Made by a program: the position numbers and the translations under genes
Shown: positions 31-13,926 of the stretch, piece after piece
How the letters are laid out: each line of letters starts with the position of its first letter
Numbering within the stretch: the stretch's first letter is position 1
Origin: a virus
Taxonomy: Duplodnaviria > Heunggongvirae > Uroviricota > Caudoviricetes
DNA: 13,926 nucleotides
Direction: 5' to 3' (one strand)
IMG/VR virus record: IMGVR_UViG_2529292830_000019
Notes under the pieces: model-generated
Seen by the model: only the letters and a program-made list of their open reading frames with translations
What the model was told of the DNA's origin: nothing
Databases searched by the model: none

Positions 31-75
31 GTCACTGTGTGTCACTGGTTGTCACTCTCCGTCACGGTATGTCAC
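31..75. repeat. Five direct GTCAC repeats at exactly 10-bp spacing (31, 41, 51, 61, 71)
   Basis: Read directly: tGTCACtgtg / tGTCACtggt / tGTCACtctc / cGTCACggta / tGTCACcaca. Lies just downstream of the last minus-strand gene. Confidence 0.6.
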
Positions 76-5222: not shown

Positions 5223-6368
5223 TTACTTGCCAGCCTGAATTTCCAGAATCTTGATGGCGTTCGAATCCACCACACCACCGCCCAGATATTTCTGGGTATA
5301 GATGTTAATGAATCCAGGCTCGCTGAAATCCGGACGGGTACGCGTACCGGTTTTATGGTCAACGATGAAATAACCGCGCTTAAAGTCACCGACTGCAATC
5401 ACACCGTCCGGCATAAATTCCAGATATTCAACCGGAAGCCCCAGCAGAGAATCAGGATCACCAGCCTGTAAACGATCGCGCCAGATGTAATCACCAGTGG
5501 CATTTTTCAGTTTTTGTGCGGAGGCGGCTGTATTTGAGTTCATCACCCATACAGCTTTTTTGCGGTACTTATTGCGCAGCGTAAATTTCAGGTCAATCAG
5601 CATATCGGCGCTGAGACTGCCAGTCACTTTTTTCGTCTGGAGCGTACCGAAAGGACGGGTTTTGTCATTATCCGTAGTGCGCGGGAAAGTCAGGAAACCT
5701 TTGGCTTTTTTCTCGCCATCCCCGGAAACCAGATCCGTTTCTTCGGTATCAACGAAAGTGTCGCCAATTTCAGAAGATAACCAGCCCATAATATCGACTT
5801 CGGAAAAATCGATAATTTCCTGAGTGGTTTTCGGGTAAGCGTAGATCGGATACAGGCGGATACTGACTTCATTCAGTTTTGGGGTTGCCGTCTGGTTACG
5901 TGCCGCACCTTCTTCGCCGTGTCCCACGACCGCACCCCCGGCAGAAACCAGTTGCTTAAATTCATTACTGTGAATGGTTTTAACAGTACAGATTTTACGC
6001 ATCACCGACTCATCAGAAAGCTGACGCATAATTTCTCTGTTCAGTTCCGGGATAACCGTATAACCACCATCAGCCGGAACACTGCCGGACAGGTTGCGGG
6101 TTTCCCCGGTCAGAATGTAAGAGCGTAGCTCATTTTTGGTGATTTTATCTTCGACGGGAACACCAGGCTGGTTACGTTCTTCATCAGCCACAGACTCGAG
6201 GCGGGAAATTTCTGTGTCGAGGGAATCGGCTTTTGCACGCAGTTCATCAAACTGTTTGCCTTCGTCATCGGTTAGACTGCGGTTTTCACTGTCGGCTTTT
6301 TCCAGCAGGGATCGCATCTGGTTTTTCAGGGCGGTTTTTTGCTGGCGGAGTTCGATTAATTTCTTCAT
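5223..6368 (-). CDS. HK97-family major capsid protein, 381 aa
   Basis: N-terminal coiled-coil delta-like region (MKKLIELRQQKTALKNQMRSLLEKA...) followed by an HK97-fold-like body; size is typical. Confidence 0.9.
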   Translation of the reverse strand: MKKLIELRQQKTALKNQMRSLLEKADSENRSLTDDEGKQFDELRAKADSLDTEISRLESVADEERNQPGVPVEDKITKNELRSYILTGETRNLSGSVPADGGYTVIPELNREIMRQLSDESVMRKICTVKTIHSNEFKQLVSAGGAVVGHGEEGAARNQTATPKLNEVSIRLYPIYAYPKTTQEIIDFSEVDIMGWLSSEIGDTFVDTEETDLVSGDGEKKAKGFLTFPRTTDNDKTRPFGTLQTKKVTGSLSADMLIDLKFTLRNKYRKKAVWVMNSNTAASAQKLKNATGDYIWRDRLQAGDPDSLLGLPVEYLEFMPDGVIAVGDFKRGYFIVDHKTGTRTRPDFSEPGFINIYTQKYLGGGVVDSNAIKILEIQAGK

Positions 6369-6545: not shown

Positions 6546-6562
6546 CATCAACCAGAATCACC

Positions 6563-6590
6563 GAACAACCTGGAACAACCACGAACAAAT
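6563..6590 (-). repeat. Three 10-bp-phased repeats (minus strand ATTTGTTCgt / GGTTGTTCca / GGTTGTTCgg) upstream of the candidate capsid promoter
   Basis: Read directly; plus strand shows GAACAACC at 6563 and 6573 and GAACAAAT at 6583. The same TTGTTC/TTGTGTC motif recurs at 12350-12400 and 12614-12676. Confidence 0.55.
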
Positions 6591-6602
6591 AATTTACAAA
6601 AC

Positions 6603-6641: not shown

Positions 6642-6890
6642 TTATTGTTTCACTGGCTCCCGCATTCTGCGTCTTATTTTCCACAAATATTCGATCATCG
6701 CTTCCACCTGCTCACGGTTGGTTGCGAAAATTTCCCCGGTCAGTGAGCTACGCAGAAAATCATGATGATCCACAAAAAATAACGCATCGGAAGAAAGCAA
6801 CCGACGATATTTTTTTGCTGTCGTGGTTTCCAGATCATCAAAACCATGAAGCTTTTTATGTTGCTGAACTTCTTCAAATGTCACTGGCAT
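6642..6890 (-). CDS. Hypothetical protein, 82 aa
   Basis: ATG at 6890 overlaps the upstream gene by 10 nt (coupled). No family recognised. Confidence 0.5.
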   Translation of the reverse strand: MPVTFEEVQQHKKLHGFDDLETTTAKKYRRLLSSDALFFVDHHDFLRSSLTGEIFATNREQVEAMIEYLWKIRRRMREPVKQ

Positions 6891-8159: not shown

Positions 8160-8400
8160 CCTTCACCTGTTCACCTTTTGAGATTTTCCCTTTTTATTCA
8201 TAATGTTAAGGAGTGAACAGTTTCACAAAAACTATTCACCAACTGTTCACCACTGTTCACCCTTAAAGCTCAATAAATAATCAAAAAGGTGAACAGTGAA
8301 TAGTTTGGTGAACAGTTCACAAATAACTGTTCACCCTATAATGTACTGATATAAAAGATATTTATAACAGGGTGAACAGTGGTGAACAGTTATTCCATAA
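8160..8400. repeat. Iteron-type replication origin: about ten copies of CTGTTCACC / GGTGAACAG in both orientations in AT-rich DNA, directly 3' of the primase gene
   Basis: Forward copies at 8167, 8243, 8253 and 8327; reverse copies at 8212, 8288, 8307, 8381 and 8391; variants CTATTCACC (8232) and TGAATAG (8297). Several are 10 bp apart. The motif equals the P4 type I iteron TGTTCACC as I recall it. Confidence 0.65.
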
Positions 8401-8402
8401 GT

Positions 8403-10217
8403 TTAATTTTTGCTGTCGTCATTTGTGACCGATGCACATGATGGCATCCAGTCTTCTGAATCCTCTGTCAGTGTCACATTTGAACGCAAACCGTGCTTCG
8501 TTTTCCGTTTTATATACTCCCTGCCATATTCCGCCATTGCCCCCGGCATATCTTTACCGAAGCGCGTCAGTGTTACAGGTTTACCGAATCCGTGTGCCCT
8601 CATATATGCCAGATAGGCGTGATAAAGATACCTGCGCGGACTGAACGGAATAATTTCGGCATTACCCACTAACAGACCATCACACATTACCGACGACATG
8701 AGATAGCCACAGAAGTCCACCAGCGAATCGCCCTCGCGTTTTATCACCAGAGCTTCTTCTGATTTCTGCTGCTCATACAGCAGGCGTTTAGCTTCGTCCT
8801 GGTCAGAAAAACGAGTAAGCAGATGGCGAATCACAACCGCCAGCTCTCCTTCTATTTTTTCTGCCAGCATGGGGTCGCGCTCGTTCTCCGGTACAACCTC
8901 CGAAAAATTGAATATCACCCGACGACGTGAGATCCCCCCGCTGCGGTCACTGAATGACATGGCGTTATTGTTCACCGCCAGCACGACCGCCTGAATGCGT
9001 GTTGAGTAGGGGGCTTTATGCTTCGGGTCGATTGCCACCTTGTCACCGCCTGTAATGGCCTTAATTCCTGCGCCATCACCAGCGTAGCGGGTCATATCCG
9101 GCATGATAATCAGCGAAAAGCCAACCACTAACGCGCGTTCCCTTGCATCTTCCAGCGCCTTCATGCTTGCCGATACTGTGTTGGCCTTACCCGCCAGCAT
9201 AGTGCAAATCTCCGCCATCACGCTTTTACCACTTCCCCCTGGACCTGTTACCTCAATGAATAACTGCCAGTCGTACCGGTTCGCCAGCACCATGAATAAT
9301 GCAGCCAGCACGCGATCCGTCTTGCGGTCATTCTCTGCCACCGAGCAGCGTAACCACTTCCAGAAATTCGGCGCATGTGTTGCCAGCGTTTCCCCCTCTG
9401 CTGGTGGGCTGAAAGGTAATTCACTGGCAATTAACAACCAGTCGTTTTTGTTATGCTCCCGAAAATTACCTGTTCTGGTATCAAATACCCCGTTACTGAA
9501 TCCAATCAGGTTACGGGCTGTATTCCCCATTACAGGCAAACTTAACTTCATGGTATCGACCGCCGATTTAATGGCGTTCTGCGAATAGCTGATCTCCGCA
9601 TCAATGAAAATCTGCGCCATAGCACGCTGTAACTCTTTATCCTGAATCGGCTCCCATACAACGCCGTTGTAATGGTGAACAGTGTCAGAGTCGGCATGAA
9701 TCGCCAGTTCACCGCCATAATGTGCCAGGAGAACTTCGCCGCGCTGGCTTGCTCCCATCTGGTTAAGCGCCAGTGGTGCGGCGCTGTCTTCTGTTTTTTT
9801 CTTAACAGGAAGCTGAATCACCAGACCATCAGAAAGATTCTGGCGCTCACGGGCCAGATATTCGCGCCAGTTCTGCACCTCCTGACCGTGCATACCCTCA
9901 GGATAAAAATTTGCATCCTGTACGCCTGCCGCCGCCAGCTTCTGACCAATCGCCTTTATCATTACTGGCGCAAGATATCCGGCCCTGAATATGCGCACGG
10001 ATTTTCTGCCTTCCGGCACAATTTGCAGCTTATCCAGTTCGGATAACTGCTGCTCCCCAAGCCACACAGGAGGCTCATTATCTCCGGCCATACGCGCGTC
10101 ATGTTCCTGCCATTGTTTTGCGTGTGACCAGGCATCACTACCCGCAAAAATAATGACTTCTGTTTCTTTGTGTTTTATGCCGCGTGACTGCTGTTTTACG
10201 TTCGGTGCCAGTTTCAT
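8403..10217 (-). CDS. Primase-helicase replication initiator (P4 alpha / D5-type, SF3 helicase Walker A), 604 aa
   Basis: Walker A GPGGSGKS within a D5-like helicase region, with a primase-like N-terminal half. ATG overlaps the upstream ORF stop (ATGA); the iteron origin lies immediately downstream. Confidence 0.85.
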   Translation of the reverse strand: MKLAPNVKQQSRGIKHKETEVIIFAGSDAWSHAKQWQEHDARMAGDNEPPVWLGEQQLSELDKLQIVPEGRKSVRIFRAGYLAPVMIKAIGQKLAAAGVQDANFYPEGMHGQEVQNWREYLARERQNLSDGLVIQLPVKKKTEDSAAPLALNQMGASQRGEVLLAHYGGELAIHADSDTVHHYNGVVWEPIQDKELQRAMAQIFIDAEISYSQNAIKSAVDTMKLSLPVMGNTARNLIGFSNGVFDTRTGNFREHNKNDWLLIASELPFSPPAEGETLATHAPNFWKWLRCSVAENDRKTDRVLAALFMVLANRYDWQLFIEVTGPGGSGKSVMAEICTMLAGKANTVSASMKALEDARERALVVGFSLIIMPDMTRYAGDGAGIKAITGGDKVAIDPKHKAPYSTRIQAVVLAVNNNAMSFSDRSGGISRRRVIFNFSEVVPENERDPMLAEKIEGELAVVIRHLLTRFSDQDEAKRLLYEQQKSEEALVIKREGDSLVDFCGYLMSSVMCDGLLVGNAEIIPFSPRRYLYHAYLAYMRAHGFGKPVTLTRFGKDMPGAMAEYGREYIKRKTKHGLRSNVTLTEDSEDWMPSCASVTNDDSKN

Positions 10218-11771: not shown

Positions 11772-11837
11772 TTGCATTGCCCACCAGCCGCAAATGTGGC
11801 ATTGTTGGTGATGCTTTTGTTTTCCCTTGTTCTCACT

Positions 11838-12131: not shown

Positions 12132-12320
12132 TTAGTGAACTGCCTCGCGGCTGTCCTTCCATGCCAGAACTTCGGATAAAGACCAGCCAACGGAACGACC
12201 GCCGAGTTTACGCCGTGATGGGAATTGTCCGGTCTTTTCCAGGCGATACCGACATGAGCGGCTCAGGCCTGTAAGTTGCTGACATTCTTTTTCACGTATA
12301 AAGCGATCTGTGCTTAACAC
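12132..12320 (-). CDS. alpA: AlpA-family phage transcriptional regulator (excisionase-like winged HTH), 62 aa
   Basis: IREKECQQLTGLSRSCRYRLEKTGQFPSRRKLGGRSVGWSLSEVLAWK matches the AlpA (Phage_AlpA) pattern. GTG start at 12320 with AAGGGGG 4 nt upstream. Confidence 0.85.
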   Translation of the reverse strand: MLSTDRFIREKECQQLTGLSRSCRYRLEKTGQFPSRRKLGGRSVGWSLSEVLAWKDSREAVH

Positions 12321-12349
12321 AATTCCCCCTTTGTTGTTTCTTAAAGAGT

Positions 12350-12400
12350 CATTGGGTGGATTATTGGGTTGGGTTGTGTCGGATTGTGTCAGGGTGTTTA
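12350..12400. repeat. Phased TTGGGT / TTGTGTC repeats (about 10-bp period) immediately upstream of alpA
   Basis: cattgggtgg / attattgggtt / gggttgtgtc / ggattgtgtc / agggtgttta. A possible alpA promoter overlaps it on the minus strand (-35 TTGCCA at 12411..12406, -10 CACAAT at 12388..12383). Confidence 0.45.
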
Positions 12401-12483
12401 TGGAATGGCAAACAGTGATGTGGTGTTCGTCGCTGAAACAGGCGCAATTAGAAAAAAACTATTTTGATTCATTTGGATACAAA

Positions 12484-12513
12484 GGCGTAAAATTCTGCAT
12501 TTACGCCTTTTTT
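12484..12513 (+). terminator. Strong plus-strand rho-independent terminator in the int-alpA intergenic region, with no annotated plus-strand gene upstream
   Basis: GGCGTAAA-attctgca-TTTACGCC (8-bp stem) followed by TTTTTT. On the minus strand the trailing U-run is poor (UUUGUAUCC). Confidence 0.5.
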
Positions 12514-12613
12514 ACATATTTTTAAGATTGATTCGCCAATGTACAAAAAAACAGTAAACCACCAGAAAATCAGACTTATAGGGAGTTAATCAGAAATAAT
12601 CATAGATAATCAG

Positions 12614-12676
12614 ATTTGTTCCAGATTGTTTGCCGTTGTTCGTCGTTGTGTCTCGTTGTTCCACGTTGTGTCCGTT
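12614..12676. repeat. Six to seven tandem 10-bp-phased repeats of (c)GTTGT(T/G)(T)C just 3' of the integrase stop
   Basis: atTTGTTCc / agATTGTTTG / ccGTTGTTCgt / cGTTGTGTCtc / GTTGTTCcac / GTTGTGTCc / GTTCtg, read directly. Confidence 0.6.
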
Positions 12677-12696
12677 CTGAAAAATCACGAAAAAAA

Positions 12697-13926
12697 TTAT
12701 ATTTCTCTGGCTATTGGCAGTGTGGTTACGTTTTCGTGAGTACCCGCCAGTATCTCTAACCGCTCTGTCCACATGTCCAGCGCATTACGTTTCGCATCGA
12801 GATAACGGGAGTGGTTATAGACTCGCTGCATCCCTGGCATCTGGTGAGCGGTGAGTTGTTCGACAATATGCGGATCCACGCCTAAATCGTTCAGCATCGT
12901 GGTAAACGTGCGCCGTATATCGTGTAGTGACCAGTGCGGATGGTTTAATTTTTTGTGCGTGAATCTGCCGTATTGCGACACGCTGGCTTCCTGTTTCAGT
13001 TCCCCGAGTAATAGTCCTGTGTGTCGGTTCTGCTCCACCAGCCGTGTGACGAACGGTAAAATGCTTTCCGGTATTGGCCTGAATATGGCGACCTTCGTTT
13101 TGCTGTGCTCCTTCGGTACTGTCCAGAGCATTTCCTTAAAATCCCCCTCCCTGATCTCCGACAGCCTCAGTTCTCCGGTTCGGCAACCAAACACAATCAG
13201 GAGGCGGATTAGTGCGCTGTAGTAGGGCGGGAATATTTTTTTATCCAGCGCCTGTAATAATTCGCCCAGTTCTTTGTTACTAAGCACGCGTTCGCTTATG
13301 CCCGGCTTTTTGCCAACGTCCACCACGTTGAGATCATCCAGAACGTTACTGACTGCGTAGCGACGTTTACGGCAGAACTTAAGCGCCTGTTTACACGCCT
13401 GCATCATGTGACCAGACGTTACGGGGGATTTTTTGCGTATCCGGTCAAAACAGGCCAGCCAGTGACGTAATTCGCATTTATCCAGTGGCATGTTACCGAT
13501 GTGCTGTATGACGTGATTATTCAGGCGACTTTTCAGGCATACATAATCGACACGGTTTTCCTTTCCGTGCGTTTCCAGCCAGTAACTGATCGCATCGCCA
13601 ACCGTTACGGGTTTTAACGCTTCCTGCACAGTGTAGTTCAGTTCATGACGTGGGTTTTTCCCTTCTGCCAGCCATGCACGACACTTTGCGGCTTTTTCCC
13701 TGGCTGCTTTAAGGCTCAGATCGGGATAGTTTCCCAGCTTCAGGCGTTCCGGTGTGGTATCCCTTCCCGTTCCAGCCCTGTAGGTGAAGTACCAGGTCAA
13801 TTTACCTGATGTTAAATATTTCACGCTCAGATTACCGCCATCGCTATAGAACGTATTTTTCTCCGCTGGCTTACCATAAAGTTTTCTTAACAATGTATCG
13901 TTCAGTTTGTTAAGCGCTCTGCTCAC
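12697..13926 (-). CDS. int: Tyrosine recombinase / integrase, P4/CP4-57 type, at least 409 aa; 5' end at or beyond the window edge
   Basis: N-terminal arm-binding-like region (LNDTLLRKL...GNLSVKYLTSGKLTWYFTYR...LKLGNYPDLSLKAAREKA) and a catalytic domain with HDIRRT and the C-terminal tyrosine region. The frame is open to the last base; the codon at 13926..13924 is GTG. Confidence 0.9.
   Translation of the reverse strand: MSRALNKLNDTLLRKLYGKPAEKNTFYSDGGNLSVKYLTSGKLTWYFTYRAGTGRDTTPERLKLGNYPDLSLKAAREKAAKCRAWLAEGKNPRHELNYTVQEALKPVTVGDAISYWLETHGKENRVDYVCLKSRLNNHVIQHIGNMPLDKCELRHWLACFDRIRKKSPVTSGHMMQACKQALKFCRKRRYAVSNVLDDLNVVDVGKKPGISERVLSNKELGELLQALDKKIFPPYYSALIRLLIVFGCRTGELRLSEIREGDFKEMLWTVPKEHSKTKVAIFRPIPESILPFVTRLVEQNRHTGLLLGELKQEASVSQYGRFTHKKLNHPHWSLHDIRRTFTTMLNDLGVDPHIVEQLTAHQMPGMQRVYNHSRYLDAKRNALDMWTERLEILAGTHENVTTLPIAREI

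Follow-up and report, generated by a model that had tools for sequence, protein, structure and literature searches.

The 13,926-nucleotide stretch of DNA analysed here, referred to as the window, comes from IMG/VR record IMGVR_UViG_2529292830_000019 and is a piece of a capsid-forming phage-inducible chromosomal island (cf-PICI), a satellite integrated in the yifB/comM gene of Escherichia coli. Direct repeats with a TTGT core in 10-bp phase were identified at five functionally distinct places in this island: on both arms of the attachment (att) site, in two clusters within the spacer between the genes for the integrase (int) and for AlpA, and upstream of the capsid gene. These repeats behave like protein-binding arrays, a reading supported by their exact helical phasing, by conserved cores amid variable spacers, and by the gain and loss of whole units, and they are probably the operators of AlpA, which in phage-inducible chromosomal islands (PICIs) of Gram-negative bacteria acts as the master switch. 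An earlier sequence-only reading had suggested protein binding at the two spacer clusters, by either AlpA or the integrase, and AlpA is the better of these two candidates. The features of the window on which the argument turns are as follows.

12613–12675, plus strand: cluster B, six units of 10 bp arranged head-to-tail around TTGT cores, with the consensus cnTTGTtnC (repeat scan, conservation).
12351–12400, plus strand: cluster A, oriented like cluster B, with two exact units and three degenerate ones in phase.
6559–6602, minus strand, which is that of the capsid gene: third array, with TTGT at 6599, 6588, 6578, and 6568 (repeat scan, shuffles).
12383–12411, minus strand: predicted alpA promoter, with −35 TTGCCA (12411–12406), a 17-bp spacer, and TG followed by −10 CACAAT (12388–12383).
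12132–12320, minus strand: alpA, encoding a 62-amino acid winged-helix protein (Pfam PF05930 Phage_AlpA, E 2.7e-18).
12697–13926, minus strand: int, encoding a P4-type tyrosine integrase (Pfam Arm-DNA-bind_3, E 5.6e-18, and Phage_integrase).

The TTGT cores of cluster B start at positions 12616, 12626, 12636, 12646, 12656, and 12666, at a spacing of exactly 10 bp, and read antisense to int and alpA. The individual units are gatTTGTtcc, agaTTGTttg, ccgTTGTtcg, tcgTTGTgtc, tcgTTGTtcc, and acgTTGTgtc, with 21 nt between the last of them and the int stop codon (12697–12699). Tandem Repeats Finder reported the segment from 12616 to 12669 with a period of 10 and 5.4 copies. Where six to seven units had been claimed, six are exact, while the putative seventh (TTCT at 12675) is out of phase and was not counted. 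In 500 dinucleotide-preserving shuffles of the window, runs of at least three TTGT at 10-bp spacing arose at a rate of 0.002 per shuffle and runs of at least four did not arise, whereas the real window contained one run of six (cluster B) and, ahead of the capsid gene on the minus strand, one run of three. The phased repeats are thus real, although the motif TTGTKTC by which they had been described was too narrow, with 8 matches in the window against 5.4 expected, a difference that was not significant. It was also noted that three AATCAGA repeats with a 20-bp spacing (12568, 12588, and 12608, plus strand) adjoin cluster B, and that only one copy was kept in the group of related loci represented by L002.

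Cluster A is weaker than cluster B. Exact TTGTGTC units were found at 12374 (gggTTGTgtc) and 12384 (ggaTTGTgtc) and degenerate ones at 12354, 12364, and 12394, and Tandem Repeats Finder reported 2.8 copies with 77% matches from 12363 to 12390. A consensus scan of the alpA strand gave a single sigma-70-like match, the predicted alpA promoter, and cluster A overlaps its −10 element and the first stretch that would be transcribed from it, in line with the location that had been suspected. Cluster B stands about 230 bp further upstream than cluster A. No convincing −35/−10 pair was identified in a consensus scan for a plus-strand promoter that would make cluster A or B an upstream activator site like the array at the capsid promoter.

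Conservation in related elements, on which the sequence-only reading had staked its proposal, was high. Matches to the int-alpA module were obtained in 918 of the 5,426 complete genomes of E. coli, and a set of 134 loci with both genes, collected from E. coli genomes and IMG/VR contigs, yielded 82 distinct spacers. Cluster B was present in all 53 distinct spacers associated with an AlpA of at least 89% identity (Int 81% to 100%), here called type-1; with one mismatch allowed per core, it consisted of six units in 45 of them, seven in 7, and five in 1. The information content was about 1.4 to 2 bits per TTGT position, 1.1 bits at the C, and less than 0.5 bits elsewhere, so that the conserved core comprises TTGT and, six bases past its first T, a C; the bases between cores vary, and the variants differ in having gained or lost entire units. 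TGGCAAA, which is complementary to the predicted −35 element, was invariant in a seven-sequence alignment and present in 53 of 53 distinct related spacers, and in 48 of these it was located 22 bp from the last exact TTGT of cluster A. The distances between clusters A and B among the variants were 197, 210, 221 to 224, and 232 bp, values that are confounded by unit gain and loss.

Cluster B was lacking in the other 29 spacers, for which AlpA was at most 68% identical (Int 33% to 76%). In type-2 elements, as seen at L042, three AATATC units in 10-bp phase take the place of cluster B just 3' of int (1292–1320), and about 120 bp upstream of alpA (approximately 1488–1517) there are TorI-like units, ACGAGCttct ACGAACctta GCGAACaaag, which read GTTCG in 10-bp phase on the opposite strand. 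PICIs with the other AlpA allele (L146, 15026–15118; L136, 3400–3470) contain an extra open reading frame (ORF) between int and alpA. In these, the Shine-Dalgarno sequence of alpA is buried in a GC-rich hairpin, followed by a T-run, that directly precedes the start codon, so the same switch gene is controlled in another way. A search of genome contigs with AlpA recovered only three loci, too distant to inform, and no comparable arrays were found in Geobacter and alphaproteobacterial loci.

The repeats upstream of the capsid gene had been thought to share their motif with the spacer clusters, and they do: the third array consists of an exact 10-bp run (6588, 6578, and 6568) and the further TTGT at 6599. 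A promoter-like site (−35 TTTACA, 6545–6540; −10 TATGTT, 6523–6518) follows directly downstream of this array, whose distance to the start codon of the capsid gene is 190 to 230 nt. Relative to the capsid-operon promoter the array spans about −45 to −95, and about 23 bp separate its end from the −35 element. The array was kept in two cf-PICIs with other int and alpA alleles (L146 and L147), although the flanks diverge.

The att site was located in a near-identical copy of the window (99.96%, with 6 mismatches over 13,926 bases) in the chromosome of E. coli NCCP 13717, here called L063, in which window positions equal L063 positions minus 2500. In L063 the yifB/comM gene is interrupted by the island, and the extension beyond the window that had been called for in search of direct repeats revealed an att core, beginning with ATCCGCTATT, at 1801 and 16613, that is, at both island ends. 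The core lies 187 bp upstream of the int start codon (L063 16426) and not downstream of int as had been surmised, which places cluster B at about 1.44 kb and cluster A at about 1.7 kb from it, with the whole int gene in between. The suggestion that the window derives from an excised or circular form found no support either: no overlap between the window ends was found, and these ends coincide with annotated gene ends (the right end being the int start codon), so the window looks like an excerpt of an integrated island such as the one in NCCP 13717.

Both ends of the island in L063 contain a 76-nt direct duplication, 78% identical, each copy of which combines a TTGT array with a doubled 12-bp motif. 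The two modules are located at L063 16465–16527 (38 to 101 bp past the right end of the window) and 1886–1948 (about 550 to 615 bp before its left end). Read on the int strand, the int-proximal arm is TTGTtccagc TTGTtccacg TTGTaccccc TTGTgca, followed by GGTGTAGTCACT GGTGTAGTCATT and ending 38 bp before the int start, whereas the distal arm is TTGTgtctat TTGTtccacg TTGTttc, followed by GGTGTAGTTACT GGTGTAGTCATT. On the former, the four TTGT units (16527–16494) adjoin the GGTGTAGT pair (16484–16465) at 85 to 105 bp from the core, and the latter has three units and a pair, both arrays being within about 85 to 135 bp of the core. The doubled GGTGTAGTCACT is situated at about 88 and 145 bp from the core on the two arms, and these two pairs are the only exact occurrences of ACTACACC within the island. 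The same layout on two arms was found in EcCICFT073 (L149), an O157 PICI between phoQ and roxA, a cf-PICI in tqsA, and an O157:H7 cf-PICI (L146), which we take to be of the EcCIEDL933 type; an arm array beside a doubled motif was seen in L064, L146, L147, and L149. As a separate observation, the unit core GTTGTGT (window 12646–12672) equals the core of the lambda Xis site X1 (lambda attP, L152), and the 12-bp arm motif (L063 16465–16484) contains both TGTAGTC, as in lambda X2, and AGTCACT, the lambda Int arm-type consensus, matches that could reflect chance or helper cross-talk.

The two motifs on the arms differ in what they vary with. The doubled 12-bp motif changes with the Int allele, being GGTGTAGTCAAT/GGTGTAGTTAAT in L056 and twice TGTGTGGTCAGT in L146, two loci in which the N-terminal domains of Int differ in the strands predicted to contact DNA. 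In contrast, the TTGTTCG arrays are the same in L056 and L146, and the pattern TTGT(T)C(G/C) is common to the arrays of the window and L056 on one side and of L146 on the other. The AlpA recognition regions of L146 and L042 differ by one residue, and tblastn identity places L056 in the AlpA group of L042. Because the doubled motif tracks the N-terminal domain of Int and the arrays remain constant, the arrays are unlikely to be Int arm sites. We therefore assign the 12-bp pairs, on sequence grounds, to the arm-binding domain of Int, as four putative sites for a tetramer, and treat the 10-bp TTGT arrays as a presumably distinct second class of sites. The DNA-binding regions of both AlpA and Int were conserved across all groups recovered, and the two genes are linked.

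Several lines of evidence point to AlpA as the protein that binds the second class. The only sequence match of AlpA in the PDB was 8c3t, and a single-sequence AlphaFold2 model (pLDDT 88) gave TM scores of 0.80 to this structure, the GIsul2 excisionase, 0.66 to the RdfS excisionase, 0.64 to TorI, and 0.58 to BldC, by which the predicted structure shows AlpA to be a member of the excisionase fold family. BldC and RdfS form head-to-tail oligomers along DNA (PMC11963761). In EcCICFT073, AlpA supplied in trans activates a PalpA-lacZ fusion, and its overexpression alone leads to int-dependent excision and replication (PMC6092414). The AlpA of this island is 97% identical, and the architecture and spacer clusters are the same. 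According to the primer table of the published supplement, the PalpA-lacZ fragment in pJP2038 maps to L149 6628–7083, which begins 33 nt before the end of int, stops at codon 20 of alpA, and holds cluster B (6682–6741), the hairpin described below, and cluster A. In marine PICMIs, AlpA acts as an excisionase with no transcriptional effects (PMC10803314). The AlpA antiterminator of Pseudomonas aeruginosa was discarded as a model, because it is a large protein, similar to Q, that uses one 6-bp site located between the −35 and −10 elements and is not comparable with a winged helix of 62 amino acids.

From these observations we infer which protein occupies the boxes and, for each site, the direction and mechanism of control. 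As with other recombination directionality factors (RDFs), each helical turn of the boxes would take up one AlpA monomer, in head-to-tail order, at up to five arrays per element, namely the two att arms (four and three units), clusters A and B, and, in cf-PICIs, the capsid promoter. Once a helper phage has triggered the expression of alpA, the protein may act on the arms beside Int, itself bound to the 12-bp pairs, and assist it in forming the excisive complex. Its own promoter would be the target of AlpA at clusters A and B, consistent with the published positive autoregulation, and at the array upstream of the capsid promoter AlpA could switch on the packaging and capsid operon.

A number of observations weigh against assigning the arrays to AlpA. 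The array motif does not co-vary with the AlpA allele, since TTGTTCG arm arrays accompany AlpA proteins that are only 57% to 68% identical, which makes a conserved third protein conceivable; covariation ties the 12-bp motif to Int, and no positive tie of the arrays to AlpA emerged. Cluster B occurs only with type-1 AlpA, but this allele is linked to an Int of at least 81% identity, so that the two proteins are not separated by the comparison. Over the −10 element and transcription start, as in cluster A, a bound protein would be expected to repress, yet AlpA activates, and cluster B is far upstream of the predicted alpA start (240 to 300 bp) and inverted relative to the arm and capsid arrays. 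Classical RDF sites are found on one arm only, whereas here both arms carry arrays. A Pint-lacZ fusion of EcCICFT073 was unchanged by AlpA (PMC6092414); from the location of its forward primer, in roxA, this fusion would be expected to include the arm array, although exact mapping of the primers to L149 failed. Finally, EcCICFT073 has no array upstream of its capsid genes.

The constancy of the motif over AlpA alleles that are 57% to 100% identical would fit a binding protein other than AlpA, such as a helper-phage excisionase, a Cox-like inducer or a host factor, which would switch on alpA and assist excision, with or without AlpA sharing the boxes. We consider this unlikely, though it is the main alternative: P2 Cox reportedly turns on P4 at boxes in 10-bp phase upstream of vis, and the matches to lambda X1, X2, and the arm-type consensus point in the same direction. 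Furthermore, alpA is induced by helper phages via a phage product (PMC6092414), and cross-talk between excisionases has been shown for a PICI protein of the AlpA family and a helper phage Xis (PMC11773190). However, AlpA alone suffices for the activation of PalpA and for excision in a non-lysogen (PMC6092414); no phage factor is therefore needed for either step, and some site that responds to AlpA must be in the fragment that carries the clusters. For a host factor with a TTGT(T/G)nC direct-repeat site, no candidate was found. A combination of the two ideas, in which the boxes are a shared landing pad for proteins of the excisionase fold, where a helper protein of the Xis or Cox type, produced soon after prophage induction, binds clusters A and B and the arm arrays first as the long-sought inducer of Gram-negative PICIs, much as P2 Cox is said to act on P4, and AlpA then takes over, strikes us as quite improbable; if it were true, the lambda matches would represent molecular mimicry rather than chance.

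The integrase had been the other candidate of the sequence-only reading, which took the repeats for arm-type sites of its N-terminal domain, and clusters A and B would then be extra Int sites regulating int or alpA. Int does carry an Arm-DNA-bind_3 domain, its N-terminal domain is well conserved in all groups that keep the arrays, TTGT arrays occur on both att arms about 85 to 135 bp from the core, and the lambda arm sites P'1 to P'3 are likewise tandem at about 10 bp. Yet the positions of P4-type arm sites are taken by the separate 12-bp motif that co-varies with the N-terminal domain, which the TTGT arrays do not, and with a 10-bp period and three to six units the arrays differ from the 12-bp tandem pairs of P4. 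Arm-type sites are expected within about 200 bp of the core, where the arm copies are found; clusters A and B, at 1.4 to 1.7 kb, are outside this range, and the capsid array lies about 7.5 kb from the core, where Int has no known role. It would also be unusual for one small domain to have specificity for two motifs, and we regard Int binding at the arrays as very doubtful. The spacer is AT-rich, with a GC content of 0.33 to 0.37 as compared to 0.51 for the window, and Tandem Repeats Finder reported several other sets of 10-bp repeats within the window, as might be anticipated if the arrays were iterons, packaging signals or curved or slippage-generated DNA rather than specific protein sites. 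But the origin is already marked by other repeats 3' of the primase gene, with TTGT being a different motif found elsewhere, and neither slippage nor curvature would predict the same core at five functionally distinct places with cores conserved and spacers free in at least 53 variants. Conservation confined to the cores points instead to recognition of a specific sequence, and this explanation is hardly credible. Binding by AlpA thus remains the reading that we favor.

The gene content of the island agrees with the cf-PICI gene set as defined by Alqurainy et al. and Fillol-Salom et al. The minus strand of the window carries int, alpA, the primase gene, and a full head and packaging module, in which the capsid gene is followed by genes for the protease, portal, connector, HNH protein, small terminase, and large terminase (372–2033). 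The genes int and alpA are co-directional at one end, a primase with an origin and own capsid and terminase genes are present, tail genes are absent, and the att site in the chromosome is a specific one, the island being inserted in yifB between two core repeats. Eight copies of the octamer TGTTCACC, four per strand, mark the origin at 8168–8390 just 3' of the primase gene, and since this octamer is identical to the "ori type 1 repeat" of P4, the satellite origin is P4-like. The remaining features of interest in the window are listed here.

8403–10217, minus strand: D5-type primase gene (gene annotation, Pfam).
5223–6368, minus strand: capsid gene of the head module (gene annotation, Pfam).
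12481–12513, plus strand: hairpin GGCGTAAA / TTTACGCC followed by a run of six T, between clusters A and B (inverted repeat search).
12676–12696, no strand assigned: A-rich, non-coding block tCTGAAAAAtCACGAAAAAAA between cluster B and the int stop codon, nearly invariant (alignment columns about 392 to 410).

The hairpin between the clusters forms a canonical intrinsic terminator in the plus direction only, antisense to int and alpA. Its T-run on the plus strand was kept in 24 of 24 distinct variants, whereas the U-tract in the minus sense was lost in four, and one stem position is G-C in the window, A-T by a compensatory change in the L002 group, and an A.C mismatch in L003. Because the T-run of the terminator is conserved on the plus strand only, the pattern suggests an unannotated plus-strand transcript through cluster A. 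No promoter, conserved ORF or Rfam family was found for such a transcript. A hidden plus-strand ORF of 71 amino acids that ends at the terminator (12310–12525) was rejected since its frame is not kept in the relatives L003 and L006, and an Rfam scan of the window gave two chance matches of the miRNA type, none of them in the int-alpA spacer. Within alpA, the synonymous sites of codons 7 to 12 (TTT ATA CGT GAA AAA GAA, 12285–12302) were invariant in 11 of 11 distinct type-1 5' ends, including the rare ATA codon, while neighboring codons vary; the opposite strand reads TTCTTTTTCACGTATAAA here, with a −10-like TATAAA that faces the predicted alpA promoter.

Other repeats were observed elsewhere in the window. 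Five GTCAC units in exact 10-bp phase (tTTGTCACtg tGTGTCACtg gTTGTCACtc tCCGTCACgg tATGTCACca; 31–75, plus strand) occupy a short spacer beyond the last gene on the packaging side and have G, T, and C positions in common with the TTGT box; they were found in L001 and L063 and were absent from L146, L147, L149, and L064. A 25-bp repeat, TGTCAGCCAC, occurs three times (11260, 11285, and 11330, plus strand) in a divergent promoter region between an Icd-like gene and a gene of the YlcI/YnfO family and is probably the operator of a different regulator. The TTGT at 11817 and 11827, 10 bp apart, together with another at 11804 (11804–11830, plus strand), are located downstream of small plus-strand ORFs and may represent a weak extra array or chance.

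Neither the DNA targets of AlpA nor the helper signal for alpA were found to be defined in the literature accessible to us. A defined box (cnTTGTtnC in 10-bp phase) at five places would tie excision, autoinduction, and the expression of late genes in cf-PICIs to AlpA, and it would provide precise mutations and probes for induction and helper cross-talk. The arrays thereby offer a concrete handle on how satellites are switched on, making the action of AlpA and induction by helpers directly testable. The separation of two site classes at the att sites of PICIs, a 12-bp motif that tracks Int and the 10-bp arrays, should also aid the annotation of attP in elements with integrases of the P4 family.

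The comparison with known systems begins with P4, for which the GenBank record annotates an "attP arm sequence repeat" of 12-bp tandem pairs, ATTGGGGGCATA ATTGGGGGCATC, one pair 16 to 39 bp upstream of int and the other 54 to 77 bp beyond the core. The GGTGTAGT pairs described here match these repeats in position and period, and in both cases att is upstream of an int gene of the P4 family. P4 also has a TCCG triple in 10-bp phase between the arm pair and the core, and its Vis is, like AlpA, a PF05930 protein that is reportedly needed for excision and is said to regulate promoters as well. Upstream of vis there are three TTAAAGNCA units in 10-bp phase (L065 9176–9205), which are presumably P2 Cox boxes, the sites at which P2 Cox is said to activate the satellite. 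Unlike the island studied here, P4 has TGGGGGCAT pairs and TCCG units as its motifs and no array directly 3' of int, and both the gene order and the regulatory circuit differ (a CI RNA and a Cox-activated PLL in P4).

Helper-embedded PICIs (HE-PICIs) contain a tgTGTATTGCa motif that is doubled with a 12-bp period and occurs in two co-oriented copies, one at about −81 and the other at about +132 relative to the center of attP (PMC10111431), which resembles the doubled motif with a 12-bp period on both arms here (GGTGTAGTCACT twice). That study calls the motif unique to HE-PICIs and leaves the binder open, and it describes neither an adjacent 10-bp array nor internal copies. For TorI, the RDF of the KplE1/CPS-53 prophage, the experimentally mapped sites have the cores GTTCG, GATCG, and GTCCG; three of the sites keep a period of exactly 10 bp and lie against the −35 element of intS, between the core and int and with separate Int arm-type sites alongside (PMC2951348); the K-12 sequence at these sites is caGTTCGtcatgGTTCGcttcaGATCGTTGACA. 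Many units of the arrays read TTGTTCG and are close to the TorI sites in motif, period, and position. TorI differs in being only 26% identical to AlpA over 42 residues, in having no Pfam PF05930 match, in sites known on attL only, in the repression of intS, and in that no arrays away from att are described in the accessible part of its description.

RDFs bind cooperatively and head-to-tail to tandem repeats one turn of DNA apart, and Apl of phage 186, a dual-purpose RDF, has such sites both at att, where there are five, and at the promoters pR and pL, where there are seven (Cutts et al. 2020, PMC7498355). No earlier description of dual-purpose RDF operators in PICIs was found in the literature accessible to us. 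The island shows direct repeats one turn apart, with six units in cluster B and three to four in the arm and capsid arrays, as well as an array on the att arm next to putative arm-type sites of the integrase (outside the window), and it encodes a small winged-helix protein of the RDF type, AlpA, by its PF05930 match and predicted structure. In common with Apl and Cox of P2, which have five to seven sites per array, one array at att and another over or between promoters, and which in this way link excision to transcription control through one protein, the system would combine a small winged-helix protein with direct repeats. It differs in that the main effect of Apl and Cox is to repress promoters that face each other, whereas AlpA, described as an activator, belongs to another sequence family (PF05930), and in that the arrays are found on both att arms and, in cf-PICIs, also at the late (capsid) promoter. 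With these differences, the system is best described as probable operators of a dual-purpose RDF, a known kind to which Apl and Cox belong.

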